This document shows, in pieces, positions 5,970 through 60,001 of a DNA stretch of 64,000 bases (its first letter is position 1; each line of letters opens with the position of its first letter). The translations under genes were made by a program, and so were the position numbers. Source of the DNA: a virus; IMG/VR virus record IMGVR_UViG_3300031576_000016, positions 29,579 to 93,578 of that record; one strand, written 5' to 3'. The notes beneath the pieces were generated by a model. It was not told the origin of the DNA, did not search any database, and saw only the letters and a program-made list of their open reading frames with translations.

Positions 5970-6995
5970 ATGGCAAATAAGCGCATCTTCTATGCCGTGC
6001 AGCAAGCCGCCTTTACCAAGTGCGGCATCGAGGCGTATTCTTCGCCCGACGACAAGGCTGTTCACGGCCTTCAGAGCCTCGGCATCAACACCAAGTTCAA
6101 CCTTGAACAGGTGTTCGAGATTGGTCAGATTTCCATCTACCAAAACATCGAGAACATTCCGGACGTGGAAATCACGATGGAAAAGGTTCTCGACGGCTAC
6201 CCGCTGATTTACCACCTTGCCACGCACGGTGCGACGGTCCCGAGTCTCTCGGGTCGCGCAAACGTCAAGGCAACGGTTGGTCTGTCGATTTTCAACGACA
6301 CGCAGGACTCCGCGTCCGGCACCACGATTGCTCAATGCCAGATGTCTGGTGTGTACGTGAGTTCGCTCGCCTACAACATCCAGGTCCAGGGCAACGCGAC
6401 TGAGCAAGTCACCATCGTGGGCAACAACAAGGTGTGGAACAACGCCTTCACCACGACTTCCTTCGACAACGATGACGCGCCGCTCGCGACCGAAGGCGTC
6501 AACCGTCGTCAGCACATCAAGTTCGGTGCGTCTGACCCGGCCGGCCCGGTCAACAGTCACTTGCCGCAGGACATCCCGGGCATCACAAGCTCCGGCACGA
6601 ACGAACTGACCAACGGCGAGTTCGGTGCTCACGTTCAGAGCATCAAGGTTTCCGCAAACCTTGGCCGCGAACAACTGTTCGAGCTTGGCCGCAAGGGTCC
6701 GTTCCACCGCTACGTCAACTTCCCGGTCGAAGTTCGTTGCGACATCGAAGTCCTCAGCACGGCCGGCGACCAGGTCAGCGCTCTCGAAGAAGCGAGCAAC
6801 CTGACTGACCGCAAGATTTTCATCTGGATGACCGAAGGCACGAAGCTCGACCTCGGCACCAAGTCCAAGTTGGCCTCGGTCAACTACGGTGGTGCGAATG
6901 CTGGTCAGAACGGCGGCAACGCCACTGTGACCTACAGCTATGTGACCTTCAACGACCTTACTGTCACGCATCCCGAAGACCCGAGCGCGTTGTAA
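5970..6995 (+). CDS. Major tail tube protein (two tandem tube domains)
   Basis: 341 aa with highly biased codons. Internal repeat: GLQSLGINTKFNLEQVFEIG vs HVQSIKVSANLGREQLFELG. Upstream of the TMP and followed by a terminator. Confidence 0.8.
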   Translation: MANKRIFYAVQQAAFTKCGIEAYSSPDDKAVHGLQSLGINTKFNLEQVFEIGQISIYQNIENIPDVEITMEKVLDGYPLIYHLATHGATVPSLSGRANVKATVGLSIFNDTQDSASGTTIAQCQMSGVYVSSLAYNIQVQGNATEQVTIVGNNKVWNNAFTTTSFDNDDAPLATEGVNRRQHIKFGASDPAGPVNSHLPQDIPGITSSGTNELTNGEFGAHVQSIKVSANLGREQLFELGRKGPFHRYVNFPVEVRCDIEVLSTAGDQVSALEEASNLTDRKIFIWMTEGTKLDLGTKSKLASVNYGGANAGQNGGNATVTYSYVTFNDLTVTHPEDPSAL

Positions 6996-7006: not shown

Positions 7007-7477
7007 TCACGGAGCATCCAAGGCCGAGACATTTGTCTCGGCCTTTTCTTTTTGATGTGGGCAGTAGCCGTAGAAGCCGATGGAGCAGTTGCAGTTCATA
7101 CATAGAACGCGATACCCTGGCGGGAAGCCTTCGCGCTTGAGCCAGAGATAGAACTTTCTACCAGTCATGCCAGATTTGCGGTGTTGATTGCCGCCTCCGT
7201 CGATGTGGTCGAGAGTCAGAAACTCAAGACGCCATTCTCCGCAACACGCACACTTCATGGTTCCCTTGCTGTAGGCTGAAAGAATCTCATGTCGCCAGCG
7301 TTGGTAGTCTTTCTTTTGAGCTACTCGCTCTACAGCACGAACCTGCGGCTGCTTTCGCCTGGCTCTAGCATAGACATTGTGACATGCTTTGCATATCTCT
7401 TGTCGCCTAGCTTTCGACATCTCTGACATTGGTTTTGTGTGACCGCACTTTTTACACCTGACTTCTGTGGTCTTCAT
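7007..7477 (-). mobile_element. Free-standing HNH homing endonuclease
   Basis: CACCGE..LTLDHIDGGG...VLCMNCN HNH motif with an N-terminal CxxC..CxxC. Inserted antisense in the tail operon. Confidence 0.85.
7020..7053 (+). terminator. Rho-independent terminator after the tail tube gene
   Basis: AAGGCCGAGAC-ATTT-GTCTCGGCCTT 11-bp stem plus T tract; it lies inside the 3' end of the antisense HNH gene. Confidence 0.85.
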
Positions 7478-19300: not shown

Positions 19301-22300
19301 CTAGTGGTGAAGGCACATATACAACTCGTCGTGGAATTGGTGGCGCTGCAACGGGCGCGATTCTTGGCGCAACTGTCGGTTCTATTGCTGGTCCGATTGG
19401 TGCCGCAGTTGGTGGTGCAGCTGGCGCTCTGGTTGGATTCACAAGTGCTATCAAGGATGCTGCAAACGAAATTCGTGAAGTAAAAATTGGCAATGCGTTG
19501 ACCATTATTTCGGACCGTTTGACCACGATTGCCAATGTGCCAGTACGAACTTTGCCAGGTGGACAGGCTACTGCTGATGACCCATTGGTTCGTTCTTCGA
19601 TGGCTGACGTTCTGCGTGAACTCACTACTTCTCGCAATGAAACACTCGACAAAAACATTAGTGAATCTAGCGGCTTCTGGCGTAGTGCCGGAGCCGTGTT
19701 CGGCATCTCGAATCCGGTTGATGTTCAAGGTCTCGCCGCGCGTCAGGAATCTGCTGACCGCCAGCAGGTTTCTCAAATCCTGCCGCAGAGCACGCAAATC
19801 ATCAACCGTCAGGCCGAAGTGTTACTACGCAACAATCCGAACATTGGCGCTCGCGACGTTGCTCGACGCCTCAGCACTGAGGGTCTCACTGGCCAACTGA
19901 TTCCTCGCATTGCTCAGGCTCGCCGCGTACCACTAGAACAATACTTGGATGAGCTTGCTTTGCAGGTTGCCCAAGTCAATACTCGATTGCGTGCTGAGTT
20001 GGCGCAGCACCAGGCTCGCGAAGGCCAGGAGAAGGTTATTCATACCTTTGGCCGGCTCGTGCTGGCGGTCCAATCGGCCTCCGACAGCCTGGTCACTCTG
20101 CGGGCGCAGGCTCAGTCTATGTCGGATGTGTTCTATGGCAACGTCACGGCTACGCCGGTCACCGCTCATTCCGAAGCTCTAACTCAGCTGGGACGCCAGG
20201 ACCGTGGAGCCATTCGCCCGCTTGAAACCATCTCTCACGTCGTTGGCGATGAGCGCGGCAACCGTCTGCTTGAGCACGGCCGGGCAACTGACGATGTGGC
20301 TCGCGTTCTACCGGCTATCCTGGCTCGCGTTGGTTCGACCAACCCGCTTGAGCCGTCTGACTTCTCCCGCCAGGTGCGCGAACAACTTGTCAGCGCTTTC
20401 GGCGGTACGCCAACAGGCGGACAAAACGCCGCCATCAACACCGTTCTGTCTGAGATTCAACGTGTCGGGGCGACGGGCGGCACCGCGCAGATTTTGCGTG
20501 AGATGCAGATTGACGCGACCGAGTTCACGCAGAAGCTCATCAACCCGCTGGCTGACCCGTTGAAGAAATTTGGTCAACAAGTTGCCCAGGACCTGGAGAA
20601 GGCCGGCAAGGAGTTTACCGAGAACGTCAACGAGTTTGTTCGTCGCACTCGCGTGGCCGGCGAAAGCATGGACCGCCTGGCTGCACTCCGCGTCACCACG
20701 GCCCGGGTACGAGCCGAGGTTACGGCCCAGCAAAGCGGACGCCCGAATGATGTGCTCAGCCAACTCTCTCTGCAAACTCTTCAGAGCGGTTTGCAGTCTC
20801 GTCAAGAACGATTGACTGGCGTCGTCGGTCCGGCAGCGAGCAACCCAGACTTCATCGGTCGCCAGCTTCAGACTGTTCGCGCTCGTATCAACGAAGCGAC
20901 CCATCGCCAGCAGGAAACCTTTGAACTGACCGGCGGACGCGGGCCTGCTTATGAAGCAGCAGCGCTTCAGTTGGCTCGGTTGAAGGACCAAGCAGCCAAT
21001 TTGCAAAATGCTCTCAAGCACCTGGCTGACGTGTCCGAGAGGAACGCAGCTGCGCAGGAAAAGTTGGGGGCACTCAAACAAGAAGCTGATGCTCGCATTG
21101 GCCTCGGCGAACGCTACCTGCGTGCTGACGGCGAAGAGATGATGCGGCTCAATCGCGGCAGCCTCCTGGTCAACCAGGCATACAGCCGGCCGCAAGGTCA
21201 GCGCGGCCTGGACAACCTATCGGTTGAAGACCGTCGTCTCGCCCTGGATTGGGTCGGGGCTGCACGTGGCACACGTCTACAAGGCTTCCAAGGAAGCCCG
21301 CTGGCTGATGACGTTCATCGCACGCTCATTCAAGAGAGTGCTGGCGGTGCGTTCAACTTGACCGCTGGTCAACAGAACGAGATGCAAGAGTTGCAGCGTG
21401 TCCTATTGGCAAATGCAGCTACTGCGGAGCAGGCTCAGAACCAACTCATCACATTCCAGCGTGAGTCGGCTGGTGAGTTTTTCCAGAACCTAACTCAGCA
21501 ACACGAGCAGTTTTTCAGTCGTCTTGAACAGACGCTCGCACGCGACCGTCTCTTTGAACAACAAAATCGTTTGAATGAAGTGGCAACTCAGCAGGCTTCG
21601 CTTCAGGGTTTGAATACGAATCGCGAAACTCTGCAACGAGCCGGCGTCACCAACGATGACCAAGTTCGCAATTTGCGCAGCAATCGCGGCCTTGTTAGCG
21701 AATACATGGGTCGCGTAAGCGAAGTACAAGCTTTGCGCCAAAGGTCAAGTAATCCGAGTGGCGCTGCCGATATTTTCGAGCGCACTTATGGCGACCGTCT
21801 TGGTTCGCAATTCTCTGATGCTGGCGGATGGGGAATCAACATTGGGCAAATGGGCCTTAGTTCTGGTTCCATAGGTCGCCTAACCGAGAATGTGCGAAAC
21901 ACCACAGGGTTCACGCCTGAGCAAACTCAAAGGGTTATCTCTAGGTTCTTGCAGCGTTCTGAAAACATAACTGGCCAAACTGGTAGTGCCAACACCAGAA
22001 GTGCTGTTACTGCAAACATCGAGGAGGCTATTCGTCGCGAACAGGCTTTGCAGTCGCAGGAAGCGCAGCAACGCTTGGCACCACTAGAGAATAACCTTCG
22101 CGGACGCCAAATCAACGTTGGTGGTCTGTCGCAGGCTGCGGCAAGTGGCAACTCAAACGCTCTGCTCCAGGCTATCGACTCATTTGATGGCGTTTCCAAC
22201 TCCTTCACAACGCTGGATACGCGCATCCAGAATACCGCAGCGTCGTTCATCAATCTATCGAATAGTGTTCGCACGCTTCAGACGCGCGTTGACAATAACA

Positions 22301-25300
22301 ACCCTAACGCTGGCGGCAATCCTTTCCGTTTTGCAACCGGCGGCACGGTTCCAAATGAACCAAGTCGCGTCTATCGGTCCTATGGCACTGACTCTGTGCC
22401 AGCCATGCTCACCCCTGGCGAGTTCGTGGTTCGGGCCGAAGCTGCGAGTGCCAACCGTGGACTTCTCGAAGCCATCAACCGCTCGAAGGGCGGTAGCGTC
22501 CAATACCACCAACGTGGTGGAGTCGCTTATCTGGCTGATGGTGGTTACGCAGATGATGAGCCGTGGGAAGTCAACGCTTACAACTCGCTGTACCGTCGCC
22601 GAAGCATGATTGGAGCCGGCGTTCTGGCTACCGGTGCTGCTTATCGTTATCGTAGTCAACTTGGCTCTGCTTGGCGAAACACCCTTGGTCGCGTTCCGGG
22701 TTTGAGATGGACAGCCGGGGGAACTCCAGCAGCGGCAGCGGCTCCTACTACTACCGCTTCGCCGCCAACTCCGGTAGTGGAGCCTATGCCAGCATCCGTT
22801 CCGGCCACGCAGCCTCGTCAGGGGCTCCTTGGTCGCGTTCGCGGGTGGTTCGGCGGGACAGCCCCAGCACCTGTTCCTTCTCCTGCTAATACCGGAGCCG
22901 GCTATTTCACGGCACCGGCCGACAATGTCGCGGCTGAGCTTGTTCCATCGCCTGCCCCTGCCGCTCCAGTAGACCCGGCTACCGCTCATACTGAACGTCT
23001 TAGTCGTCTGACTCCAGAAGCTCGTGCTCGCTACCAACGCATTATGGCGACCGAGCCAATCTCGCGTGCTGACGCTTTGGCAAGAGCAGAAGCGTACAAC
23101 CAACGCATTTTGGGTGCTCAGACACGAGGCGCAGAACGTGCTGCTGCTTACGGCCAACAGCAATCGAACTACGGCGCTGCACAACCACGCAATGCTCCGA
23201 CGCAACCTGTGGCCAATGAGCCGCCAGGCTCAAATACGTGGTCGCGTCCAAATCGCGTTATTCCTCGTCCTTCCCCGACCGCCGCTACCACTTCGTCCCC
23301 AGCGGCAGCACCAGGCGCAACCCCAGCGCCTGTTGTTGAGGCTCCTGCTCCGGCTGCGGCTCCCCGCGCAACCGGAGCAGCCTCTACTCGCGTCACGCCA
23401 ACAACCGCAACCGAGCCAGACATCTATCGCTTGGCTCTCCAGGAGACGGCTGGCACACCACGTACTGGCCCAACCATTCGTCAGCTTCAAGCGACGAACG
23501 GAGCGGCTCAGGCTCCTCGTCCGCCTGTTCCGCAGGCAGCAGCGGCAACGCCAACACCAGTTGCACCCGTTCGCACACAGGTGACCGCTGGCCAAGGCAT
23601 GGTAATCACGCTTGGCGCGAGCTTGGCCTGGAACCACCTGGCTCAGCAAGCCGGCTTCAATCAGAATGTCACCGACGCCGGCAACCTTGGCATTCTTGGC
23701 GGCGGCGTGGCATTGTCTACTCCGACCGTTGCTGGTGCTGGTCTGTCAGCAACCGTGGCTGCACCTGCGGCCATCATCGCTGCACCAGTGGCTGGTGTCA
23801 TGGCCGGCAACATCATCGGTCGCAACGAAGACGCGACATCGCTGTTGACGACTGTCGTTCGTAATACGCCGACACCGCTGGCTGTCGCATACCGTGCGGC
23901 CGGCATCGACGAGGATGTGGCTCGCCGAGGCAGTCGCGAATATCAACGCATCTCTTCCAATGTTCACCAGGCACTGACAGTTCCTGGTGGTGATTGGGGA
24001 CAACGCACTGCTGACGCAACTGCAAGCTGGGGTGAAAATGTGCCGGTAGCCGGACACATTGCTTCAGGTGTTGCGACATTTGGTGCTAACACAGGACGTG
24101 TGGTCACCGATGTTGTCACTGGCGTTGGTGCTGAATTGGCAACGCCGGTTGTCAACACGCTGGATGCTGGTGGTTCCTACATTCGTGCCAGCCAACAAGC
24201 GGCCTACACTGATGCTCGCGCAGCGTTCCAGCCATACTTCAGCAAGTATCTGGATGCCATCGAAGCTCGCCAAGATGAGCAGTTGAATGCGGCTGGCGCT
24301 TTGATTCCTTCGCTGAAGAGCGAAGTTGACGCCGCCATCGCTCAGACAGAATACCGCTCAGCGGTGCCGGAAGCTTCTCGCTCGTCGTTCTCCGCGCGTC
24401 TTGGTCGCATCTCGATTGGTAAGCCAACAGAGACCAGCCCAAACATCCTGAGCTTCATCGAAGACACATATGGTCAGGGTCACCTATGGAAGACAAATAA
24501 TGGTGTTCACCTACAAGATGTGATGCGGCAGCATGGCAGTCGCGTCGGCATGGGCGATGATGAAGGCGTTCGTATCGACTTCCAGAACCGCGCGAGTGAG
24601 AATCCGCGAGTCGGACGCGAAGCGATTTTCGCCAAGCTCCGTCAGCGCATCACTCAGCCTCTGGATGGAGCCGAAGGCCCGCGTCCTCGATTCGCTGTCA
24701 TGGACCGTTTGCGTGACGCTTACACTCCGGGCGACAACAACATCCGCACAATGATTGACCGGCTCCGTGGCGAAAGTGCTACCGAGCAAACAGTCCAGAC
24801 GGACCGTCACACGACATTGCTGACACAGGCGACTCAGTTGGACAATGACGAGCAACGCGCGGCATTGTTTGAACAGCCGACTCGGTTGCAGCAGCTACGC
24901 GAAAGTCTCCGGGCTCGTCGCGAAGTAGTGGCGGCTTTGGCAAACATGCCCGCCGACTACCGCAACTTGATGACATGGTACACCACTGGTTCGCCGCCGT
25001 GGATGCAACGCATTCGTCAGTACCAGCAGGCAGCAGTTCTGGCTGGTCTCGACATCGAACGCGACCAAATGCTGACGCCTATCGGCTACGCAGCAGACCG
25101 GTTCTCGAACGAACAGCGCGAACTCATCACCAATGTTCGCCGTGGTCAGATTGCTGAAATTCGCCGTCGTCAGAATGTGGATGCTCGGCTCGCCAATGGC
25201 GACACGCTCACGGCCATCTTGAATGAGGTGCCGGCTGGGTGGAAGTCCATCTACGAACAGTCGATTCGCGAAACAGGCGGCAGCAATGCCGCAGAGACTG

Positions 25301-28300
25301 CTCACCTGACCGAGACAATGGGCGGCGTGGCCGGCGTCTATACTCGCGTTATTGGCGGCAACTTCGAGGGCAACAACTCGGCAGGCCAGCTTGCTTCGGC
25401 CGCGCGTTTGATTCCGGATGATTTCCTACGTGCTCAGCTTTTGCCTGGTGGTCTTGAAGCCGACAACGCATTGTTCTCCTACCGGTCGAGTGACCTTCAG
25501 GATGCGATTGGGGCCGTTCGTCAACGACAGCTTCGCTTGCTACAAGAGGCCGGCGAAATCAATGCGGTTGGCGATGTGCCTCGTCAGCTTCGCAACGAAG
25601 GTGTCATCCCAGGCTTCGCTCCGCTCTCGTCCATTGCTCGTCAGTATCTGACTCCGCAGGCCCTGCCGCTTGATGCGTTCTTGGCCCAGGCCGGCAATTC
25701 GGAAGTGTCGCGTCGGTTCCGTCTGCGTGACGCTAACAACATCAAGCGTGAGAATCGCTCGTTCATGGCGATGCGACTCGACACGGCAGAAATCGCTGCT
25801 GCTCTGAATCCGCAGGCCGCGCCAGCCCCAGCCCCGAATGCAAACGTTCAACTCGCACGCGGCGGCATGGTCTATCTCGCCCAGGGCGGTATGCCTTCGC
25901 CGCTGTTCCAGCCGAGGGGCACGGACACCATCCCGGCAATGTTGTCGAAGGGCGAATTCGTCGTCAACGCAGAAGCAACCAAGCAGCACCTGCCGCTTTT
26001 GGTGCAAATCAACGAGGGTCGTCGCCCATCCTACCGCGAAGACGGCGGGGCTGTTGGTGGAGCTATGTCGGCTGTCGCTGCGACTGCTTCTACGGCCCCA
26101 TCCTCCCCTTCTCTGCTCAGTTCCGGAAACGAAGGCGACACCTATAACTTGGCCTCGATGCCGAGCAATGAACGCTTCTTGCTGACACAGACATTGTCTA
26201 CTCTTGGCAAGCACCAGGTCGGCTCGATTCAAGACGCTGACGCTCGTCTGACGGGTCTCGAACAACGTTCGTCGAGCACCGCAGCCACTCAAGACAACCT
26301 GGCCGACGACCGCATCATTTTCGCGAAACTCGTGGCCGACAACATCGACGCCGGTCACCGCAATGCCGACGTGTTGGTCCGGTCGCAAACTAACCTTCAG
26401 AAACGGTTCTTCCTCCACTTGGGCGGCTCCCAGGACAAGTTCCTTGACAAGTTCGGCATGTCGCTCACTCTGGCTCCGAAGCTCGCGGCCAATGCCGCTC
26501 GCGCGGGTGACACGAACAATGTCTCGATGAAGCTCTTCCGCACCGGCGGCGTCGTTCAGTATTACGCAACCGGTGGTGAAACCAGCATGTTCCAGCCGCG
26601 CGGTTCGGACACAGTTCCGGCCATGTTGAGCCATGGCGAGTTCATCGTCAATGCGGCCTCGACTCGGCACAACCTGGGTCTGTTGCGAAAAATCAACAAC
26701 ACCAAGGGTCCGGTCTATTATGCACGCGGGGGCCTGGTGGGTCCGGCCTACTTCTCTGAGGGTGGTCAGGCAGAACAACCGCAACCGCCGCCGATGCCGG
26801 CCACGCCGTCCGAGCCGATTTACATCGACGAGGCAGGCCCGACTGTGGCTCAGCAGAATGCCGCAGCCGGCATTCAGGAATCTGGCGGCGAAGTTCCACA
26901 AGCCAGCAATGCTGCGGCTACGGCTCCAACTCCTGAGCTTCCGAGTCAGACGCCGTTTGGCGAAGACCCAGACCGCCCAGCAGCGGCCATGTTCCGGTTC
27001 GCGGCCGGAGGGTTCGTCCGTCCACGTTACTTGGCCCAGGGCGGACTTGTCAGCTACTTCGATGGCGGTGGACCTGTGCCGGCTCCGGCCCCAGCGGAAA
27101 GCCCTGAGCAACAACAGACCTTCCAACGATGGCGAGATTACCTGGCTGAGCCGGCGAATCAAACGCCGCCTCAAATCCAGATGTTGGAAGGGTGGTTCAA
27201 TCGCGGCTTCGGTGCCAATGGTTGGGACCGCGCGGCATTGCGTGCTCGCCTGGCCCGAGACGGCAATCGTCTATCTCCACGTTGGCGAGGTTTCTTCCAG
27301 GCATGGTCTGGATGGGTCGGTCGTCAAAACACCGAGCGCGATGCAGCCGCACAAGCTCGTCTGGAAACATTCCGTCGTACCTTGGTGCCGACTGTCGGCG
27401 GCGCGCCAGCCGCGCCTCTGCCGCCCGAACAGGCAGAAGCTCGTTACCAGGCCGAGTATCGTCGTCTCCGCGACATCTGGACTCGTGGCGGCAATCCACT
27501 TCAGGGCAATCTCGAAGGCGACGACGTTGAGGCGTCGGTCAATCAGGAAACAACTGCGGCCATCGCTGCCGGTCGTGCGAATTTCCAGTTCCTCAGTCCG
27601 GAACAGCGTGCTCGCTATCGCATCCTTCGTGAAATGCAAGGTGCCCAGGTTCGCCAGCGCACGGCTCGCGGACAGGCCCTGACGTTCACCGGCGGTCCAA
27701 CAGCTGACAACGCGCAAGGACGCGCTCTTGGCGAAGGCATTACAGGTCAGCAGGCATTCGCAGCGGCTCCTGGCGCTGTGGCCGAAGAGAACCTGTCTCC
27801 GACCGAGCAGGCTGTCCTTGAGGAAGAATATCGCTTCGCGGCTCAGGACCGTTTCAATCGTGAGACCCAAGGTCTGACGACTCTCGAACAGTTGACGCAA
27901 TACTGGCAGCCGCGCGAAGGACAGTCGAGCCCAGCATTCCGCCAGGCGTTCCGCGCGAACTCCAGTCGATACACGCCTCAGCAACGGGCAGAGATTCAGG
28001 CTCAATGGGACTTCTACGACGCCTACCTCGCACGCCGGCCGGCTCTCGAAGCGGCTCAACAGCAAGCGCGCGAACAGCAACGTCAGCAGGAAGCACAGCG
28101 TCAGCGTGAGGCTCAGGAACGCGAGACCGCCAACCAGCGCGTGCAAACGTTCCGCGACCAGCAGGCCGCGCTCGACCAGGAAATTCAGTTCCAGGCTGCC
28201 GTCAATCCGAATGGCGGCTCGGCGAACTTCCTACGTGAACGTCAAGCCGGCGAGCAGTTCAACCAGAACATGCAGCGTTTCAACGCTCGTTGGGGCGAAC

Positions 28301-29208
28301 TCGAAAATCGTGACCGCAACGGCCGCGAAGAACGCGAATGGAATCGGATGCAGGCCCAATGGCGTCAAGTCGAACGCCAGGGTGGTGAAGATGGGGCACG
28401 TCGCTTGTTCGTGGCCCAGAACGCGGCTCAGGCCCATCAGGGCGCGGCCATCCAGAACTTGCAGCGCCGGCAGTTCATTGCCAACGCTCAGCAGCCGTTC
28501 CAGGCATTCGGCTTCTCCCGGCCTGGCATCGAAGGTCAGCGTCAGGCGGATGTCGCCGTGCTCGCCCAGCGTCAAAACTGGAACCAGCAGGTGCTCCTCC
28601 AGGACTTCAACGCTCGCCGGTTGCTTGGACAGCAGCCCGGCTTCCCGGTGCCGGCACGTGCCTTCGCTGAGGGCGGCGTCGTTCCTGGCAGCGGCGTCCA
28701 CGACACTGTGCCTTCCCTGCTCACTCCAGGTGAGTACGTCCTGAATCGCCACGCTGTCCAGCGGATTGGTGTTGGCAACCTCCACAGCATGAACCATTTC
28801 GCAAATGGCGGCTTGGTGGGCGGCGTGAACTACCTGGCCGGCGGCGGACAGGCCACAGGGTCTGGTGTGGGCATCAATCCGGAAGTCGCTCAGGCGTTCA
28901 GTCGCTTCGGTGACACCGTGGTTCAGATGGGCGGCGGCTTCAACGTCTTCAACGCAAGTGTGCAGCAGTTGACCAGTGCGTTTAGTATCTTCGGGGAACG
29001 TTCGTCCAAACTCACCGACGCCCTGAACAACTTCCCGGGCACGCTCAATATCCAAGGACATCAAACGGTGGAACTCATTCTCAACGGAGCCGAAGTTCTC
29101 GCAAGTATGCAAGGGGACTTGCAGGCTCTGGTCCAGGACGCAGTCAAGACGGTCGTTCGCGAACGCCTTGGCGGTATCCTCTCTGATGCCGGCGTGCAAC
29201 TGGAGTAA
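10333..29208 (+). CDS. Giant tail tape measure protein (6291 aa) with embedded cargo domains
   Basis: TP901-type TMP core at about 10650-11550 (DFNRTMVKIAQV...LANAALVFKQAG...AVESRDLIEAVRKSG...IATGMRTIFTRI), glycine zippers, repeated GG..TD[ST]VPAML.PGEF modules, and position between chaperone and tail-tip genes. Confidence 0.9.
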   Translation: MADFNIVARLQIQLQAGSAAAAVQQLQQQLRNANLSLAFGLQPQALGGLNNLNQGLRATQAAASATSSSLRSTTQVINDGSTAIERFGAQAGLAARRFIAFTVGASTIVKVAQAFREGIAAGIDFNRTMVKIAQVGGDTKGQLAELASEVTRLSTTWGISSKELANAALVFKQAGLSAQEVKGHLETLALTDLAPNFESMAQTAEGQIAIWRQFGTNVDQTREALGAANAVAGGFAVESRDLIEAVRKSGGAFKAAGGSFNEFISLFTAVRSTTRESAAEIATGMRTIFTRIQRPQTVESLRELGVNLRYTADEAKNLGRADLENQFVGPYEAVSRLNEALRDIPTTDPRFLQVIEQLGGYRQVSRVLPMILQFSEAQKALNVAQTGSLSLTAAAEKSQESLGRRLSQVNEEFLGFMRSIVESKGFQSFVRFSLDLASALIKVLDVARPLIPVITTLAAVRIAQNFGQTAGGFLSHFIGTAPGSFTPKKVEPGVRFAKGGYVPGSGATDSVAAHVMPGEHVTKKDSTQSVDRRYPGFLTAMNQGGDIGVENYFRHRFADGGEARQGFGFGDTVKSLLANSVLGLGLLTGVDSGDAYEVAKQRSGEQVEHVQKSLQEDEKKKRQIKQAFGGETPRQRFGFGDSVKKWLSTGILAAGSLVGGHGLDDQVSVGQQEKRDRIENVKESLEEELRRKNKKKPQKLGKGGTPDLVAADGSMVLPLIEKHFDDVKQDDRGRYVTKQNNRDVFFEYMPKINALKIDFLQDGIGDFKHTNKSLQKGTLSFLRNLQGVAKSAGQKVFGIVAAGSEQKRSKIYKEGLEKLGFVADDTWSEYYKKAAFGGEMRLAKGGDDIFSKLPKYPKEDESELPPQYGNPINEFIQKKTGLSKKEITAAALAGSVAANGLLAATSMWIPGSQPVATGITALGIAGVKKLLKKRRGFAGGLDVMPDGQHESLRNLYDQVKEYAETRFSAHAGSPESDQKKSKATIAHIRRLAAATLSRKEVLQRIPAGSSIAGIGAFGVAIKTPDGDVIRAQADKAPDLANKYAAEIGRKPFKPWQYATARPPIDEVLQPTATMTVKKGERSTFMERLPYVTPLTELPHHQQEEAHEKAQAELLPSMAKKGWMLTDKHKGNLAVDKAGRFIALDPATAKKMNEDQQSRLLRILASDKAVATGLPGAQVDESTIHDPRLSVSPPSPTVQTRGRKKFDIGGEAALPEAMKLLQQRFQTFDVSRIAENVTFHDKIPSKTFPERGAIGKFYPETDEIALSRQLKSPRLLAKTLLHEFVHRIDYDEGTQKRHGSRDKKSVPGKLAAQLQPAWSEMAMQRYFKGKTKEQLTPKEQESLAYLTAPHEVLAYMVSDVATRDKDQVPEEHEKAVQTLLRRHLPARQPQKYERGGWVVPGEGNTDSFPADLAQGSYVIRKSSVQKLGASNILKMATGGTVPALLMPGEVVIPPGKARQIGRHALTEMNLHGRMPFAQGGFVRMATGDQVPKQETVKVGALPERFQDDVERMFRGLGAKVQKPLHELEVVIERFGKNIVRVVKIVDVAVTSTALPKSAASAATTPATKPQTVPALQIVRDLKAHLIAQAEAGGKSGKLSSEQVEKRKARYDKMLSEENPERSLEKYAKFQTKAPSFSGYLDKRDRKQAAEDLKSTIYTSYLETGTTSKYKSAKTPEERGRVLATAVPKYIRQNLADFEGGTETGRSYETAKKTRGLESQYQKALRTQSPEEALKSVVYQATAKRIQYEESSRQNKGKAPRTQKELQAAIEERYQTRMGKYDAHDFEGPAADVARAKLFGHKDHIKRGAEEASARTGKSVDETRVDSLEALHSSLGDSSQAAAIYRQQQTTGLQSQLKRGKISQATFEKRVAKLDSLSDDKASKLLLYTRDGTLREKVGKQLAAAGITAGKTPQETRENIGKRLQEMKGELEAAKPTTVPEVAGRGLTPEEKRKRLVDQEVRGATLESDLTPSKADLKELRKDPAFVKQEKQDAAPSAPEKAWTQPAAAAQTVALPTKVDAVKKSVPRPTDRQQLERRLNELEGVDVPSAHEMKEIADIHRQLKNQKTPVPPQQQTGRGRVRDTLAPSDLRDIQEQTKDLVVPEAAISSASDKLKAGPTAQVARQEREARDKKPSPIILPGDQPAGPPRPLFIPGQTQAQPDAKVFTSEADFRRSQQPSAKIVTGDETPVPSLVQPTREEVKKYGRSAAGPTAVAAAAKQPRDIRRIMDKLATSGLVEDLEVPGKGADPRAKKGLLRYLKQYGEEIEKAGKGTLSRRLQKLARKAPDWQPSLRGILPAPEEDTTTFSFAEEAAAATKSKPRPSKKTKELDLAVGYKEPKVEFTFPEEKAPLPLESDVNQKSRLRREQEEEAKKRHKNAVDLASQPSHKLQGDAATVPVSLTKEEIISKTVSDFAPTGEPKEPDVPASLFDKDKKKKQTSRQEHLKKERQRFIKEEGVTEEAIAFRERMLDSTKSLDEARKLIASPEFDGHEKINPYFDVYAQERHGQKKKRKPKTCGLAPEQSFFDKPTPQPRPTSSLPPPPSGKVPETYSFAGDPPESKRYHVEGDPLHPAQQQGGEHRSRDFYRTLYNSTTAGDTLGYTKKTRRELAKAKDALDQARLDAAADPTDDNRLRFKEAGRAYDKLEKQKVVVGRREADPYYARRLLDQAKSELLPHEYKAFEAETRRVHPNLASQGGDPTILRQYKEGKSDDEIRDNHYGQTGRRVGLFGGAAIGGAVGSLFGPLGTVLGGTIGAAVGQKIAKALPGSAAFEESLAEKGTGNVSVGHIAEYKTDKETGQKRLIGGDLREKGQAELTKYLAGRGPVSDATKHAFETEAIGRAEARVKRELISAQERWLKAVHPNISATEKHKLALEQVDAALAGQAKVVKSSTGRYLGVETEHTKASDLDKATGAGGVGFQFRSAKGAIGDWMADKYRSLKAGYEKFESSKAGQVLSGAGSFLSSQPVTFLAPLLGGQIEQSAGTAENAVKAGASGEGTYTTRRGIGGAATGAILGATVGSIAGPIGAAVGGAAGALVGFTSAIKDAANEIREVKIGNALTIISDRLTTIANVPVRTLPGGQATADDPLVRSSMADVLRELTTSRNETLDKNISESSGFWRSAGAVFGISNPVDVQGLAARQESADRQQVSQILPQSTQIINRQAEVLLRNNPNIGARDVARRLSTEGLTGQLIPRIAQARRVPLEQYLDELALQVAQVNTRLRAELAQHQAREGQEKVIHTFGRLVLAVQSASDSLVTLRAQAQSMSDVFYGNVTATPVTAHSEALTQLGRQDRGAIRPLETISHVVGDERGNRLLEHGRATDDVARVLPAILARVGSTNPLEPSDFSRQVREQLVSAFGGTPTGGQNAAINTVLSEIQRVGATGGTAQILREMQIDATEFTQKLINPLADPLKKFGQQVAQDLEKAGKEFTENVNEFVRRTRVAGESMDRLAALRVTTARVRAEVTAQQSGRPNDVLSQLSLQTLQSGLQSRQERLTGVVGPAASNPDFIGRQLQTVRARINEATHRQQETFELTGGRGPAYEAAALQLARLKDQAANLQNALKHLADVSERNAAAQEKLGALKQEADARIGLGERYLRADGEEMMRLNRGSLLVNQAYSRPQGQRGLDNLSVEDRRLALDWVGAARGTRLQGFQGSPLADDVHRTLIQESAGGAFNLTAGQQNEMQELQRVLLANAATAEQAQNQLITFQRESAGEFFQNLTQQHEQFFSRLEQTLARDRLFEQQNRLNEVATQQASLQGLNTNRETLQRAGVTNDDQVRNLRSNRGLVSEYMGRVSEVQALRQRSSNPSGAADIFERTYGDRLGSQFSDAGGWGINIGQMGLSSGSIGRLTENVRNTTGFTPEQTQRVISRFLQRSENITGQTGSANTRSAVTANIEEAIRREQALQSQEAQQRLAPLENNLRGRQINVGGLSQAAASGNSNALLQAIDSFDGVSNSFTTLDTRIQNTAASFINLSNSVRTLQTRVDNNNPNAGGNPFRFATGGTVPNEPSRVYRSYGTDSVPAMLTPGEFVVRAEAASANRGLLEAINRSKGGSVQYHQRGGVAYLADGGYADDEPWEVNAYNSLYRRRSMIGAGVLATGAAYRYRSQLGSAWRNTLGRVPGLRWTAGGTPAAAAAPTTTASPPTPVVEPMPASVPATQPRQGLLGRVRGWFGGTAPAPVPSPANTGAGYFTAPADNVAAELVPSPAPAAPVDPATAHTERLSRLTPEARARYQRIMATEPISRADALARAEAYNQRILGAQTRGAERAAAYGQQQSNYGAAQPRNAPTQPVANEPPGSNTWSRPNRVIPRPSPTAATTSSPAAAPGATPAPVVEAPAPAAAPRATGAASTRVTPTTATEPDIYRLALQETAGTPRTGPTIRQLQATNGAAQAPRPPVPQAAAATPTPVAPVRTQVTAGQGMVITLGASLAWNHLAQQAGFNQNVTDAGNLGILGGGVALSTPTVAGAGLSATVAAPAAIIAAPVAGVMAGNIIGRNEDATSLLTTVVRNTPTPLAVAYRAAGIDEDVARRGSREYQRISSNVHQALTVPGGDWGQRTADATASWGENVPVAGHIASGVATFGANTGRVVTDVVTGVGAELATPVVNTLDAGGSYIRASQQAAYTDARAAFQPYFSKYLDAIEARQDEQLNAAGALIPSLKSEVDAAIAQTEYRSAVPEASRSSFSARLGRISIGKPTETSPNILSFIEDTYGQGHLWKTNNGVHLQDVMRQHGSRVGMGDDEGVRIDFQNRASENPRVGREAIFAKLRQRITQPLDGAEGPRPRFAVMDRLRDAYTPGDNNIRTMIDRLRGESATEQTVQTDRHTTLLTQATQLDNDEQRAALFEQPTRLQQLRESLRARREVVAALANMPADYRNLMTWYTTGSPPWMQRIRQYQQAAVLAGLDIERDQMLTPIGYAADRFSNEQRELITNVRRGQIAEIRRRQNVDARLANGDTLTAILNEVPAGWKSIYEQSIRETGGSNAAETAHLTETMGGVAGVYTRVIGGNFEGNNSAGQLASAARLIPDDFLRAQLLPGGLEADNALFSYRSSDLQDAIGAVRQRQLRLLQEAGEINAVGDVPRQLRNEGVIPGFAPLSSIARQYLTPQALPLDAFLAQAGNSEVSRRFRLRDANNIKRENRSFMAMRLDTAEIAAALNPQAAPAPAPNANVQLARGGMVYLAQGGMPSPLFQPRGTDTIPAMLSKGEFVVNAEATKQHLPLLVQINEGRRPSYREDGGAVGGAMSAVAATASTAPSSPSLLSSGNEGDTYNLASMPSNERFLLTQTLSTLGKHQVGSIQDADARLTGLEQRSSSTAATQDNLADDRIIFAKLVADNIDAGHRNADVLVRSQTNLQKRFFLHLGGSQDKFLDKFGMSLTLAPKLAANAARAGDTNNVSMKLFRTGGVVQYYATGGETSMFQPRGSDTVPAMLSHGEFIVNAASTRHNLGLLRKINNTKGPVYYARGGLVGPAYFSEGGQAEQPQPPPMPATPSEPIYIDEAGPTVAQQNAAAGIQESGGEVPQASNAAATAPTPELPSQTPFGEDPDRPAAAMFRFAAGGFVRPRYLAQGGLVSYFDGGGPVPAPAPAESPEQQQTFQRWRDYLAEPANQTPPQIQMLEGWFNRGFGANGWDRAALRARLARDGNRLSPRWRGFFQAWSGWVGRQNTERDAAAQARLETFRRTLVPTVGGAPAAPLPPEQAEARYQAEYRRLRDIWTRGGNPLQGNLEGDDVEASVNQETTAAIAAGRANFQFLSPEQRARYRILREMQGAQVRQRTARGQALTFTGGPTADNAQGRALGEGITGQQAFAAAPGAVAEENLSPTEQAVLEEEYRFAAQDRFNRETQGLTTLEQLTQYWQPREGQSSPAFRQAFRANSSRYTPQQRAEIQAQWDFYDAYLARRPALEAAQQQAREQQRQQEAQRQREAQERETANQRVQTFRDQQAALDQEIQFQAAVNPNGGSANFLRERQAGEQFNQNMQRFNARWGELENRDRNGREEREWNRMQAQWRQVERQGGEDGARRLFVAQNAAQAHQGAAIQNLQRRQFIANAQQPFQAFGFSRPGIEGQRQADVAVLAQRQNWNQQVLLQDFNARRLLGQQPGFPVPARAFAEGGVVPGSGVHDTVPSLLTPGEYVLNRHAVQRIGVGNLHSMNHFANGGLVGGVNYLAGGGQATGSGVGINPEVAQAFSRFGDTVVQMGGGFNVFNASVQQLTSAFSIFGERSSKLTDALNNFPGTLNIQGHQTVELILNGAEVLASMQGDLQALVQDAVKTVVRERLGGILSDAGVQLE
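13153..13944 (+). other. Protein-kinase-like domain inside the TMP
   Basis: GIGAFGVA Gly-rich loop, MERLP hinge, TDKHKGN catalytic loop (DxHxGN), IALDP metal-binding Asp. Confidence 0.7.
13960..14502 (+). other. Zincin-like metallopeptidase domain inside the TMP
   Basis: GKFYP..DEIAL...TLLHEFVHRID (HExxH) with downstream YL..PHEVLA as third-ligand helix. Confidence 0.75.
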
Positions 29209-55838: not shown

Positions 55839-56318
55839 CTAGCTCCTTTGTGCCGTAACGACGGCAAAGTTGTTTTGGATGCGCTTCTGAATGACCCTGA
55901 ACCCGCGCGTGGTGAAGACGCCAACCAACAGCGGGAGAGTAAACGATGACCGGCGAAGTTGCCAGCCTTCAGTCTGCTCGCCGTGGAGCAAGACATTGTA
56001 GTCTTCGATGCGGATGAGGTTCTGTAGGAACTGACGGGCCGCTTCGCCAACGTCAGGACACGCGACCGTGAGAATCCCCTTGTGAGCCAACTTGCCAAGC
56101 CAGTTGCCTAGCACTTCATCAACCTGTTGCGGTGGGAAGTAGCCGAGGATGTCGTGGGCCACAATCTCTTCGGCCTCGCCGTTCTCCACGAGCTTGTCCA
56201 GATTGTTCACATCGCCGACGACTCGACCATGCGTGTCCGGAGTGGGAGCAAAGGGGTCGATGTTGAGGTAGCCGCTTCGCACAGCGCCAGGGTTATCAAA
56301 CAGTAGGTTGACTCGCAT
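55839..56318 (-). CDS. Methyltransferase-like protein
   Basis: GYLNID, GDV, EEIVAHDILGY, KGILTVACPD. Confidence 0.55.
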   Translation of the reverse strand: MRVNLLFDNPGAVRSGYLNIDPFAPTPDTHGRVVGDVNNLDKLVENGEAEEIVAHDILGYFPPQQVDEVLGNWLGKLAHKGILTVACPDVGEAARQFLQNLIRIEDYNVLLHGEQTEGWQLRRSSFTLPLLVGVFTTRGFRVIQKRIQNNFAVVTAQRS

Positions 56319-56538
56319 TGCGTTCACGCTCCATTTGGCCGCAGGTGCATCCTTTAGCCATGAGTGCCTGCGTACTACACACGCAGATAGGTTCGATTTC
56401 GCATCTGACTTCTACAGGGAAATTGACGTACCGATGATACGGACCTCTCCTTGGCAACTCAAAGAGTTCTTTTCTGCCAAGGTCTGCGGACACCTTGATA
56501 TTCTGTAACATGCTCGCGTATTCGTTGGTGTCGGTCAT
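56296..56538 (-). CDS. Small protein containing a copy of a tail-tube segment
   Basis: 30/38 aa identical to the tail tube segment encoded at 6636-6749. GAGGAG RBS and ATGA coupling with the upstream GT4. Confidence 0.75.
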   Translation of the reverse strand: MTDTNEYASMLQNIKVSADLGRKELFELPRRGPYHRYVNFPVEVRCEIEPICVCSTQALMAKGCTCGQMERERNASQPTV

Positions 56539-57554
56539 GCGTATTCTCCTCGGTACGGTATCCTGGCCGCATTGTGAAACAGCGTGTGCCAGTTGCTTGT
56601 AAACGATGGCATGGAAAATCTGGTCAGGATAGTGCGACGTGCCGCCGCTCCCAACTCGGCCACGAGCGAGCTATCGGCCAGCAACCGTTCCAGGTACTTG
56701 CGAAGGACGAGCGGGTCATTCGAGATTAGGCCGTTCTTGCCGTGCTCGATGACTTCGGGAATCATGCAGTTGGCCGTGGAGACACAGGCACAGCCGCAAC
56801 TCATTGCTTCAAGCAGCGCGGTGGGCACAGGCGAAATGAGGCTGGTGTTGAGGAAGATGCGAGCTTCGCGATAGGCCGCGACCAGGTCGGCTGTTGACTT
56901 GGCCGGCTTGGACAGCCCGGGGGTGTCGCCGACGACATGAACTGGTAGACCGCCGGCCGTCTTCCTCCAAAGCTCGAAGCCACAGCACCAGTCGCGGTTC
57001 ACCCAATCGTTGACCACGGAGAGGATGTGCCGCTTCTTCTCTACCTCAGCAGGAGAGAAGAGGTCGGTGTCGATGCCATGATGAATGATTTCTGCTTGCT
57101 GTTCGTCCCAGCCCCATTCTTTCCTGCTGAAGTCGCTGATGAAGACGTTGACGTGCCCCTTCATTTCGCGCAGCAGTTGACGCCGGCCCTTACCCCACGA
57201 TGGATACGGCAAGGTGTGTTCGAGACTCACGAGTGGAAGTTGAAAGCGATGGGAGAAGCGAATCGCTTTCTGGAACTGGCCGAATTTGTTCTGACTCAAC
57301 ACCAGGTCGAAGTCAAGCTCGGGCGGAATCTGGTGGTCGCCCAGGTCGGCATTGAGTAACACGTAGTTCGTGGGGAGCGGCGCGTAGGTGCGATTCCAGT
57401 CCTTGATGCCTGGTGCGCGAACGGCCCAGAACCGGTGACCCGTAAGGCAAAGGCCGGTTTCGTACCGCTCGTGGGTTGGGAACGTCAGGATATTGAGAGG
57501 CTTACCGTCTTCGCGGTGAGCGGCTCTCAGGATGCTTCCGACAACAGAGGGCAT
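56535..57554 (-). CDS. GT4 glycosyltransferase
   Basis: IHHGIDTDLF, ALLEAMSCG, EVIEHGKNG. Confidence 0.85.
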   Translation of the reverse strand: MPSVVGSILRAAHREDGKPLNILTFPTHERYETGLCLTGHRFWAVRAPGIKDWNRTYAPLPTNYVLLNADLGDHQIPPELDFDLVLSQNKFGQFQKAIRFSHRFQLPLVSLEHTLPYPSWGKGRRQLLREMKGHVNVFISDFSRKEWGWDEQQAEIIHHGIDTDLFSPAEVEKKRHILSVVNDWVNRDWCCGFELWRKTAGGLPVHVVGDTPGLSKPAKSTADLVAAYREARIFLNTSLISPVPTALLEAMSCGCACVSTANCMIPEVIEHGKNGLISNDPLVLRKYLERLLADSSLVAELGAAARRTILTRFSMPSFTSNWHTLFHNAARIPYRGEYA

Positions 57555-57824: not shown

Positions 57825-58355
57825 TTACACCGCAATGTCTTGTGTTGCGCGACTGGCCAGGTAGTCCTTCAATCTCTTGATGATGGAATCCCAATCACGC
57901 TTGAGGAGTTCGAGTTGAGCCGCCATTCGATAGATGGGGCCTTCCAGGTAGGGCCGGCCAGTTTCGTGAGCGCGGCTCACACACACTGAGACGGGAGTGT
58001 CGAACCACACCGGAGTGGCGTTGATGTCGAGACGAAGGTAGCGAAGCAGGGTTTGTTCGGTAGTCGATGTCTCATCTATAATAACGTCGAACCCACGGTT
58101 TAGCAAAGCCCGAGTTGCGACATCCATCGCGGCGAATACCGAGCCCTCGGCTTCCACTTGGAACTCGCGGCCGTAGAGAGCACGCCGGAAGTCGTCACCG
58201 CAGACAATGACACGCGGGCGGTCCTGATGGCGGAACTCGAAGAACTGTCCCTCGTAGACTTTCGGTACGCGGTCGCCACGAACCCAATCGTCGCACCAAA
58301 CAGATTTGCCGCTGCGCGGGAGCCCGATGGTGAACAACAACCTTCCTCTGCTCAC
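57825..58355 (-). CDS. P-loop kinase (AAA_33/PNK-like)
   Basis: GLPRSGKS, DDFRRAL, VIIDET. Confidence 0.75.
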   Translation of the reverse strand: MSRGRLLFTIGLPRSGKSVWCDDWVRGDRVPKVYEGQFFEFRHQDRPRVIVCGDDFRRALYGREFQVEAEGSVFAAMDVATRALLNRGFDVIIDETSTTEQTLLRYLRLDINATPVWFDTPVSVCVSRAHETGRPYLEGPIYRMAAQLELLKRDWDSIIKRLKDYLASRATQDIAV

Positions 58356-58633
58356 CGTTTGCCGCAAGGGGATTTCTTGTCCGTTGGCGTACAGCTTGGC
58401 TCCATATCCGGTAGGCATGTGACTTCAACCTCGGCTTGAGTTTCAATCCAGACGCGGGCTCCACAACTGAGCGGCTTGTCCGGACTGTAGATGATACGGC
58501 TGGGGCCGTGAATAACAGCGTCGTGGGCGTAGGTCACACCTTTGCTGGTGCGAATGCTGATGACTGGTTCATTGCGGCTGTGCCGCTTGTTGGAACGGAT
58601 TCGGTGCTGGTTGACGTGAATGCGTTTGAGCAT
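58352..58633 (-). CDS. Conserved phage hypothetical protein
   Basis: IHVNQH..R.N...YSPDKPLSCGARVWIET. Confidence 0.65.
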   Translation of the reverse strand: MLKRIHVNQHRIRSNKRHSRNEPVISIRTSKGVTYAHDAVIHGPSRIIYSPDKPLSCGARVWIETQAEVEVTCLPDMEPSCTPTDKKSPCGKR

Positions 58634-59297
58634 AGTTCTTGATGGCCTCCACTGCCGCTTTGGGCGACAGGTACTTTTCCACTCCGCTGCCACGAATCCC
58701 TGGGGCGAAGTTCAAGTCCACCGCATAGGCTGTGGCCTTGCCAAGAACGAAATCGACAGCGAACAAGGGGCGGTCCATGCCGAAGTGTGGCCCAATGTCT
58801 AACTCGACCTGGAACACTTCGCAGTCGCCTTCGCCACAGTTCGAGCGCCAGTCGTCTTTCGCCCGATACTCAATCCAGAAGCGGTGCATCCCGACCTGAA
58901 GCATTCGCCAGCTTACGCCTGTCCAACTCGGAGCGCCGAAGCGACCGACGTATGCTGAGCAGAAGAGGGTGTTACACTGGCGGTCCAACTCTTCCAGCCT
59001 GCTGATGCAGCCATCCCATTTGAACCGAGATGTCTGCGTCAGCCTCTTGCCATCGCCGCCATGAGCGTTCAAATCGTGGTACACAACCAGCCAGCGGACC
59101 CAATGCTGTTCGGCTTCCCACCATATTTCCATCACGTCCTTGACCAGGCCATGTGGCGGGGTCGAGAGACCCATTCCTTCGAGCAAAGCAAACTGCTCGA
59201 TACGATTGGGTCCCTCGGTTCCCATTCGCCTGAACTCCGGGCCGTTCAGGTCGAAGTGGTGGTCATAGTAGTCAGAGAAGTTGCTGACCAGTTTCAT
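58569..59297 (-). CDS. ATP-grasp-like protein
   Basis: WRSN...FAVDFV....AVDLNFAPG. Confidence 0.5.
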   Translation of the reverse strand: MKLVSNFSDYYDHHFDLNGPEFRRMGTEGPNRIEQFALLEGMGLSTPPHGLVKDVMEIWWEAEQHWVRWLVVYHDLNAHGGDGKRLTQTSRFKWDGCISRLEELDRQCNTLFCSAYVGRFGAPSWTGVSWRMLQVGMHRFWIEYRAKDDWRSNCGEGDCEVFQVELDIGPHFGMDRPLFAVDFVLGKATAYAVDLNFAPGIRGSGVEKYLSPKAAVEAIKNYAQTHSRQPAPNPFQQAAQPQ

Positions 59298-60001
59298 TTC
59301 TTTTGGAGCCGTGGTGTTGGCCCCTCCCATCGTTTGTCCATCTGCCTGACGATGTCTGGCCGCTGACAATCGTCGTGAGTCAATCTCACGTAGCTAACCG
59401 CTGGCAGGCGAATCGGATAGCAGTAGCGCCGAATCATTTCGACGAGCGGATTCAGACCATCGTCGTACAAGTCGGTCTGCGTGAAGTCGCCGCTGATAAT
59501 GAGTCGCGTGCCAACGTCGAGCCGGGTGCAAAGCATACGCAACTGCCCACGGTCGGCATTCTGCGCTTCGTCGCAGATGATGATGGCTCGCTTGATGGAT
59601 TGACCACGCATCAGTTCGAGAGACTGAAGCTCAACAATGTTTTCTCGCATGAGCTTCAGCAACTCGTTGGCGCTGAAGCATTCGTTGAGCACATCAAGTA
59701 GAGGACGCATCCACGGCTGGACTTTCGCGTCTTTGTCGCCAGGCAGGAAACCCATGCGACCGCCGCACTCAACCATTGGTCGCGTGAGAATCAGTCTCTC
59801 GATGCGGCCCTCTTTGAGCATCTGAGCAGCGAGAGCACATGGGATATATGTTTTGCCAGTGCCGGCCGGTCCCGTACAAATGGTGACCGTGGATGTTTCG
59901 ATGGCCTTGAAATACCGTGCCTGATTGTCGGTTCGCGGCTTCAGTTTGCTGCGAGCCAGTTCGAGCGCGGACTTGTCTTGTTCATCTTGCCAGTTCTCCA
60001 T
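59294..60001 (-). CDS. phoH: PhoH family ATPase
   Basis: GPAGTGKT, TRP, GFLPG, MRG, DEAQN, GDFTQTD. Confidence 0.9.
   Translation of the reverse strand: MENWQDEQDKSALELARSKLKPRTDNQARYFKAIETSTVTICTGPAGTGKTYIPCALAAQMLKEGRIERLILTRPMVECGGRMGFLPGDKDAKVQPWMRPLLDVLNECFSANELLKLMRENIVELQSLELMRGQSIKRAIIICDEAQNADRGQLRMLCTRLDVGTRLIISGDFTQTDLYDDGLNPLVEMIRRYCYPIRLPAVSYVRLTHDDCQRPDIVRQMDKRWEGPTPRLQKK

Follow-up and report, generated by a model that had tools for sequence, protein, structure and literature searches.

A gene for an 80-residue protein, present in a stretch of 64,000 nucleotides of viral DNA (the window), reproduces the long beta-hairpin of the phage's own tail tube protein and joins it to a tail containing four cysteines. 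Sequence comparisons indicate that this mini-gene is a real, selected gene and that its product, the mini-protein, belongs to an old, separate family of hairpin-excerpt proteins, of which it appears to be the minimal (smallest) member, with one excerpt and one tail. The explanation that we favour, and to which we give about an even chance, is that the mini-protein is a functional hairpin mimic that acts by competitive binding.

As reported in an earlier note made from the letters of the window, the mini-gene has its own ribosome-binding site (GAGGAG, 7 nt before the ATG), is translationally coupled and lies in an opposite-strand block about 50 kb from the tail genes (Table 1). Its ATG overlaps the stop codon of the upstream glycosyltransferase gene as ATGA, and its final 23 nt extend over the likely start codon (ATG, 56318) of the following gene; the frame is not only intact but coupled on both sides. 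The gene is on the minus strand in a glycan island, and the tube gene (5970-6995) is on the plus strand. The N-terminus of the product reads MTDTNEY, and its cysteines are C52, C54, C64 and C66. A scan for promoters and terminators around the gene gave nothing beyond chance. The octamer GAATACGC occurs twice, 23 nt apart, at 56516-56546 on the minus strand of the window, once in the last codons of the glycosyltransferase gene and once inside the mini-gene (encoding EYA in both cases), and this repeat may reflect the joining event that produced the insert. Two other genes lying among the glycosyltransferases were called by eye, namely a P-loop kinase-like ORF (57825-58418, minus strand) and a PhoH-like ATPase (59294-60001, minus strand). 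A PhoH-like gene is also found 1 kb from the hairpin copy of record G026 described below, so the excerpts may have a preference for a single variable region. Among RNA runs, none was found to contain the locus. Apart from the probable source sample, the only contigs that matched were two of 151 nt from a 2025 freshwater metagenome, which correspond to parts of the glycosyltransferase gene (56767-56917 and 57016-57166) with one mismatch each; neither covers the mini-gene. Since the probable source of the window is a 2019 cave metagenome, a near-identical phage may inhabit another habitat.

Table 1. Coordinates of the mini-gene, of the genes related to it in the window, and of ectopic hairpin copies in related records
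Feature	Position	Strand	Description
Mini-gene	56296-56538	-	80 aa; tube-hairpin module directly joined to four-cysteine tail
Hairpin module, mini-protein residues 6-49	56392..56523	-	matches tube-profile positions 208-259
Four-cysteine tail, mini-protein residues 52-74	56317..56385	-	CxC, eight residues, GCxCG, then QMERERN
Ribosome-binding site GAGGAG	56546..56551	-	7 nt 5' of the mini-gene ATG, within the 3' end of the glycosyltransferase gene
GT4-type glycosyltransferase, upstream of mini-gene	56535..57554	-	likely start is Met37 of the listed ORF
Gene downstream of mini-gene	55839..56318	-	likely start is ATG 56318
Tail tube protein, 341 aa	5970..6995	+	two tube domains in one chain; protein mimicked by the mini-protein
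Tube residues 217-268	6618..6773	+	long beta-hairpin of the second tube domain
Major capsid protein, HK97-type, 344 aa	1863..2897	+	related to phage G gp27
Ectopic copy, G001	record end		region collinear with a copy-free part of this genome
Ectopic copy, G026	L120:2998-3576	+	start of a 192-aa ORF; C-terminal half MazG-like by eye
Ectopic copy, G044	L121:3030-3635	-	inside a 201-aa ORF with a twin-arginine leader

The 341-aa product from which the hairpin is copied had no match in Pfam or PHROGs. More than 3,200 homologues were found in metagenomes, one of which matched PF26461 (Phi812_tail_tube). An AlphaFold2 model built from 38 homologues (pLDDT 80, pTM 0.82) was related by Foldseek, with a probability of 1.00, to the T5 tail-tip protein p140, T5 pb6, the DT57C tube, the P74-26 tail tube and the major tail protein of an Acinetobacter phage. 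The model thus bears out the label 'tube' given in the earlier note and identifies the product as a tandem-domain tail tube protein, with the fold of T5 pb6 (5ngj/9iny), T5 p140 (7qg9) and P74-26 TTP (8ed0). An internal repeat was also detected by BLASTP, which aligned residues 11-47 of the mini-protein with tube residues 34-71, and this fits two tube domains per chain. In the model, the copied segment comprises a strand (221-230), a long loop and a second strand (254-263), with the lowest confidence at the tip (238-240), in agreement with the initial proposal that the mini-protein mimics the tube beta-hairpin. No other stretch is as well conserved in the tube family as this long beta-hairpin of the second domain. 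It is homologous to the first 50 residues of the mini-protein, which differs from tandem-domain tubes in that it is devoid of the beta-sandwich and has its own signature and a four-cysteine tail. The complete tube domain is absent from it, as judged by the lack of a sandwich in its model and by the fact that only profile positions 208-259 are matched, and for this reason it cannot be a tube subunit.

The tube gene stands between the capsid gene (1863-2897) and an ORF of 6291 aa (10333-29208). The capsid protein matches phage G gp27 (PDB 6wkk, E 2e-6) and, weakly, the HK97-fold model NF042927. The tail module also contains, immediately behind the tube gene and on the opposite strand, an HNH endonuclease gene (7007-7477, minus strand; phrog_2255, E 2e-16) that looks like a free-standing homing endonuclease. 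Because an HNH gene is also present near the G026 copy, we considered that the copies could be the footprint of a homing endonuclease, but this would leave their conservation at the protein level unexplained. A different related record, G052, contains two full-length tube paralogues (21222-22163, plus strand, and 108600-109682, minus strand; open frames of 318 and 379 aa), both about 52-54% identical to the tube of the window.

Recounting confirmed that the mini-protein and the tube share 30 of 38 residues in the core of the match and that 13 of these 30 identical residues are encoded by different codons; the base identity over the core is 84/114. BLASTP against the 341-aa product extended the match to residues 6-57 of the mini-protein and 217-268 of the tube (32/52 identities, E 2e-23). 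The DNA encoding residues 6-49 differs from the tube gene at 42 bases; every type of mismatch occurs, and 23 affect third codon positions. The repeats of a diversity-generating retroelement would be nearly identical and differ at adenines of the template; this possibility was rejected, and there was also no RVT_1 match in the 61% of the genome covered. Antisense or RNA pairing with the tube mRNA was rejected as well, since the two copies have the same, sense, orientation and an identity of no more than 74%. Between the mini-gene and its own tube, dN was 0.18 and dS 1.8, and between the mini-gene and the G001 copy (22/27 identical residues, 68% base identity) dN was 0.17 and dS was saturated; being based on 27-43 codons, these counts say only that the peptide, not the DNA, appears to have been preserved. 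Over the same length, the mini-protein was about equally similar to its own tube (21/27) and to other tubes (18-20/27).

In all 17 related IMG/VR loci examined, the mini-gene is absent, and the stop of the glycosyltransferase gene is separated from the ATG of the next gene by only 1-4 nt. These relatives thus do not have the insert, about 228 nt long, in which the mini-gene is located. A scan of about 97 related viral records with the mini-protein as a query revealed ectopic hairpins in four of them, each at a different locus; three (G001, G026 and G044) are additional to that of the mini-gene. The copy of G026 sits between a ribonucleotide-reductase-like gene and an HNH gene (L120:3593-4255), and that of G044 is flanked by homologues of two of the glycosyltransferases of the window. 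When the whole tube was used as a query, residues ~215-268 were the only clear extra pieces in related genomes, a weak additional match in G044 (tube residues 121-157, E 0.001) being possibly due to chance. A search with the degenerate DNA pattern for RKELFEL.R.GPY disclosed one more copy, in an AT-rich metagenome contig (L126), where it lies inside a 244-aa protein (P0141) adjoining a sugar epimerase and keeps QNIKVS.D..RKELFEL. No further family member was found besides the mini-protein in the 61% of this genome that is covered. The mini-gene is an optional, non-syntenic accessory gene, and for this reason, as well as its absence from most relatives, the suggestion in the earlier note that it could time the polymerisation of the phage's own tube fits poorly.

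Several features of these loci were noted in passing. In G026, the hairpin is fused in frame to the N-terminus of what looks by eye like a MazG-like pyrophosphohydrolase (L120:2998-3576, plus strand), and the 987-aa ribonucleotide-reductase-like ORF that immediately precedes it seems to hold an intein. In G044, two adjacent ORFs (L121:2561-3043 and L121:3030-3635, both on the minus strand) have twin-arginine leaders of the RRxFLK type; one of them contains capsid excerpts only (an SPEAM..W..DQMDE.TRREI stretch and a piece of the capsid C-terminus), and the other the tube hairpin plus FPLDFL. Three of the five copies with known context are in sugar-gene islands, which could suggest that the excerpt serves as a mimic of a glycosylation acceptor; this is a weak explanation, because the hairpin is not on the outer surface of the tube.

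We had at first favoured the view that the mini-gene is a non-functional recombination scar, i.e., a piece of tube gene lodged between two genes and open by chance, or only for the sake of translational coupling downstream. Its absence from the locus in all 17 relatives, the direct 8-nt repeat GAATACGC at the left junction, the presence of a proline in place of a conserved glycine and the failure to find any homologue of similar length among 5.8 billion proteins would all be in line with this. The idea was dropped after the ectopic copies in relatives, the AT-rich copy and the family described in the next paragraphs had been found.

The search of 5.8 billion proteins, which was word-indexed and concerned lengths of 44-140 residues, returned only the mini-protein itself. 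A tblastn search of 50,697 phage records with the mini-protein and the tube gave no match, and sequence searches of Pfam, PHROGs, NCBIfam and the PDB gave nothing for the mini-protein or its relatives; Pfam, PHROG and NCBIfam contain no model for the hairpin-excerpt family. By contrast with the word-indexed search, a phmmer search that was exhaustive over 1.84 billion representatives yielded 229 matches. Among the best 150 of these, 69 clusters resemble the tube profile at positions ~205-258 alone and show no relationship with tubes elsewhere. The same applies to the mini-protein, in which residues 4-55 are the only part that matches the profile (positions 208-259). Fragments of true tube genes were also among the matches, but the profile covers those end to end, indicating that the 69 clusters are not truncated tube genes. 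The description of the mini-gene as a stand-alone gene is thus borne out by a family of at least 69 clusters whose likeness to tubes is confined to the hairpin.

The members of this family are less than 50% identical overall and yet keep the core Q.I.[IV]S..L.RE.L.ELGR.GPY.RYV.FPVE, in GC-rich as well as in AT-rich phages. Conservation ends where the tube strand would re-enter the sandwich, so that what is retained is the protruding hairpin. A family signature, [YF].[SA]M[IL]Q (consensus Y-S-S-M-I-Q), which is absent from tubes, replaces the Y-G-A-H-x-Q of the latter, and the N that precedes L.RE in 108 of 114 close tubes is often replaced by D. The mini-protein carries YASMLQ and ADLGR, i.e., the family signature, unlike its own tube. 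We had also taken 'RKE' together with 'D' as derived characters shared uniquely by the mini-protein and the G001 copy, but this was weakened by the finding of DL.RKELFEL in a distant tube (L123). The earlier note had pointed to a G-to-P change in the putative loop. This change is present (tube Gly240, a glycine in 114 of 114 close tube homologues, corresponds to Pro29 at the tip of the hairpin) but it is private to the mini-protein, the family keeping a glycine at this position with more than 90% conservation; this particular copy could therefore be drifting.

A hairpin tree was computed with FastTree from 57 columns and 248 rows, a short alignment that includes the signature columns and gives modest branch support. 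The label 'ectopic' or 'tube' changed 11 times on this tree, as compared with about 60 times when labels were shuffled. The eight rows nearest to the mini-protein are all ectopic, while its own tube is among the tubes. As far as such an alignment can tell, the tree shows a grouping apart from tubes, not a dated history. It also placed the G026 copy among other excerpts, which made us abandon the idea, based on the shared NEL and P.F, that this copy had been captured from its own tube. The initial interpretation of the match between mini-protein and tube, namely selection on the peptide or capture from a related phage rather than a fresh DNA duplication, can be kept for the conserved peptide and for the exclusion of a fresh duplication, but not for a recent capture, since the nearest tree rows are excerpts. 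Furthermore, the likeness between the mini-protein and any tube in the databases does not exceed about 72%. This, the intact frame coupled on both sides, the presence of the family signature instead of that of the tube, and the match of both halves of the ORF, up to the last residues of the tail, with a family of at least 69 clusters conserved at the protein level contradict the scar hypothesis, which we now regard as extremely improbable.

Within the 69 clusters derived from the best 150 of the 229 matches, three groups of architectures can be distinguished. Class A (15 clusters, including the mini-protein) has an N-terminal hairpin and a C-terminal CxC, 8-10 residues and GCxCG, often followed by [IM][EQ]RE[RK]; the C-terminal CxC..CxC mentioned in the earlier note is accordingly not only present but conserved across this class. 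In class B (14 clusters, with members P0130, P0149, P0165, P0199 and the ORF L121:3030-3635), the hairpin is preceded by a twin-arginine leader of the RRxFLK type. The other 40 clusters have other architectures, some with an N-terminal zinc ribbon; some of them are very short, perhaps through truncation at the end of a contig, or may represent partial ORFs. The tail of the mini-protein is conserved to its last residues, the run GC.CG.[MI].RER being found in P0253, P0135, P0136 and P0137, and a four-cysteine tail is also present in P0253 and P0242, beyond the 15 members of class A. In the mini-protein there is no RRxF[LF] leader with its hydrophobic stretch; neither such a leader, in any frame, nor a tatA gene was found in the 61% of the genome covered.

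Many members contain, in addition, further pieces of the tube and pieces of the capsid protein (SPE..DI..W..DE.TR.EI, FPLDFL, FTK.L....K.VM.RN and RWDI.G.AM..LE.GF), all of which are found in the capsid protein of the window. In two large mosaics, P0242 (413 aa) and P0136 (396 aa), seven or more conserved tube and capsid pieces are interleaved out of their native order, among them the RIFYA motif of the tube N-terminus, and the four-cysteine tail forms the C-terminus here too. The 61% of this genome covered yielded no ectopic capsid excerpt. The class B mosaics with Tat-type leaders share with the mini-protein the hairpin module and the phage lineage (with a capsid related to phage G gp27), but the mini-protein has no twin-arginine leader or capsid excerpt and has instead the C-terminal four-cysteine tail.

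Leaders and tails are exchanged among members with equal excerpts. Moreover, a tail of the same type (CxC-x8-GCxCG-HIQRERE) ends a 118-aa ORF with an unrelated N-terminal part (L127:673-1029, plus strand; IMGVR_UViG_3300037466_002816), which indicates that the four-cysteine tail is a portable module. The neighbours of this ORF are an HNH endonuclease gene on one side and a DnaB-like helicase gene on the other. These observations raise the possibility that the tag is the functional part, the four-cysteine tail (or, in the sister class, the Tat-type leader) being a handle that directs proteins to a partner or place (the virion, a chaperone or the envelope, for example), and the hairpin being just one cargo that does not bind tubes. 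The occurrence of the tail on a non-hairpin ORF and on the large mosaics P0136 and P0242, and the swapping of leaders and tails among members with identical excerpts, would be expected in that case. It would leave unexplained the frequent use, as cargos, of the best-conserved interface pieces of those two virion proteins that are most abundant, as well as the persistent conservation of these pieces; we consider it quite improbable.

The mini-protein was also modelled with AlphaFold2, using a family alignment of 42 rows. The monomer (pLDDT 73, pTM 0.28) was too loose for a fold search. Strands were lacking in residues 1-50, and the four cysteines were bracketed by a pair of short helices (56-62 and 66-75). 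The model thus suggests that the hairpin needs a partner to fold, as expected of a strand-complementing mimic, and that the four-cysteine tail probably forms a small zinc knuckle. The SEC-C motif at the C-terminus of SecA (PF02810) is a short zinc knuckle of the CxC ... C[CH] type that serves as a docking handle, with its cysteines spaced as 1, 3, 12, 13. The tail of the mini-protein is likewise a short C-terminal cysteine motif, but its spacing is 1, 3, 13, 15, and searches of Pfam, including SEC-C PF02810, gave no match with the mini-protein at E up to 0.1 or with six of its relatives at E up to 1.

Since the isolated hairpin is predicted not to be stable alone, it most likely binds in place of the real hairpin. 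The mini-protein would then present the protruding ring-to-ring hairpin of the tube on an exchangeable tag and compete for whatever binds the free tube hairpin. The partner that we favour, though only tentatively, is a host sensor, such as a receptor of the Avs16-type (STAND) or DSR2-type, that would detect the free hairpin before it is buried in the tail, and that the mini-protein would occupy or cause to mis-assemble. This choice is based on the patchy, island-borne distribution of the genes, which is typical of counter-defence genes, and on the fact that the other excerpts found in the family also look like the conserved capsid and tube pieces that such receptors read.

[quoted passage not shown] The hairpin targeted by Avs16 is the element copied by the mini-protein, and on this analogy the two may be linked. 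The Avs16 study (PMC13581612) deals with a host sensor and its target, and no phage-encoded mimic of the hairpin is described there or in a review of phage countermeasures dated November 2026 (PMC13728456). More generally, neither the literature that we searched nor that review yielded any account of phage genes whose products reproduce parts of the phage's own virion proteins. DSR2, for its part, senses tail tube proteins and is blocked by a small phage-encoded protein, DSAD1, according to the abstracts of two reports (PMC11087589, PMC11263360). The parallel consists of a host defence triggered by the tube and a small phage inhibitor, the mini-protein being a candidate inhibitor of this kind. 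It is set apart by description, in that DSAD1 is not presented as a tube excerpt in those abstracts (PMC11087589, PMC11263360), while the mini-protein is a copy, at the sequence level, of part of the trigger.

Several points call for caution with the host-sensor reading. A mimic of the trigger could activate the sensor rather than block it. The mini-protein resembles its own tube about as much as it resembles other tubes, so that its sequence gives no sign of a sparing of own tail assembly, and Pro29 could mean that this copy is drifting. Furthermore, the twin-arginine leaders of class B point to the envelope, while Avs and DSR2 act in the cytoplasm, which is a difficulty for a cytoplasmic decoy; these leaders keep envelope-side roles possible, such as meeting incoming tails. 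A short peptide of a major virion protein that is recognised by a host exclusion system is known in the case of the Gol region of T4 gp23, which is sensed by the Lit protease. Gol acts within the capsid protein itself and there is no separate mimic gene, while the mini-protein is encoded by a separate gene.

The main rival to the host-sensor reading is interference with assembly. The free hairpin would dock in the acceptor groove of a tube subunit or on the growing end of a tube and cap polymerisation, thereby poisoning co-infecting related phages, or delaying the phage's own monomers until the initiator complex is ready. In line with this, the element that has been copied is the one through which stacked tail-tube rings contact each other (as deduced from the model and from PMC13581612), the residues retained are those of the protruding hairpin, the sister proteins join several interface-like excerpts of capsid and tube, as a multi-target poison might, and members with a Tat leader could encounter incoming tails in the envelope. 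Yet a factor for the phage's own assembly would be expected in every relative and in synteny with the tail genes, which is the opposite of an optional gene in a glycan island 50 kb away. The hairpin also fails to discriminate self from non-self tubes, so that a poison would hit its producer as well. On balance, we judge interference with assembly unlikely.

Bacterial immune receptors are known to detect assembly interfaces that are conserved in the core phage proteome, the hairpin of the tail tube among them. To the question of how phages escape such detection without altering essential interfaces, the present family offers a concrete and testable candidate answer, being a widespread set of small genes in which copies of these very pieces are kept conserved and are shifted between exchangeable tags. 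A bolder extension of the competitive mimic, which we hold to be rather unlikely, is that the mini-protein and its relatives make up a modular counter-immunity kit, in which each excerpt would decoy one receptor of unassembled virion interfaces and the tag would set the place or the partner. If this were true, phages would be countering Avs-type sensing of the core proteome with copies of the epitopes themselves. With one excerpt and one tag, the mini-protein is the simplest construct for binding, structural and phenotypic tests. Should the poisoning of the assembly of rival phages turn out to be true, it would represent a new mode of competition between phages. With either function, a protein family without a Pfam, PHROG or NCBIfam model is defined, together with two types of tags, the four-cysteine tail and the Tat-type leader.
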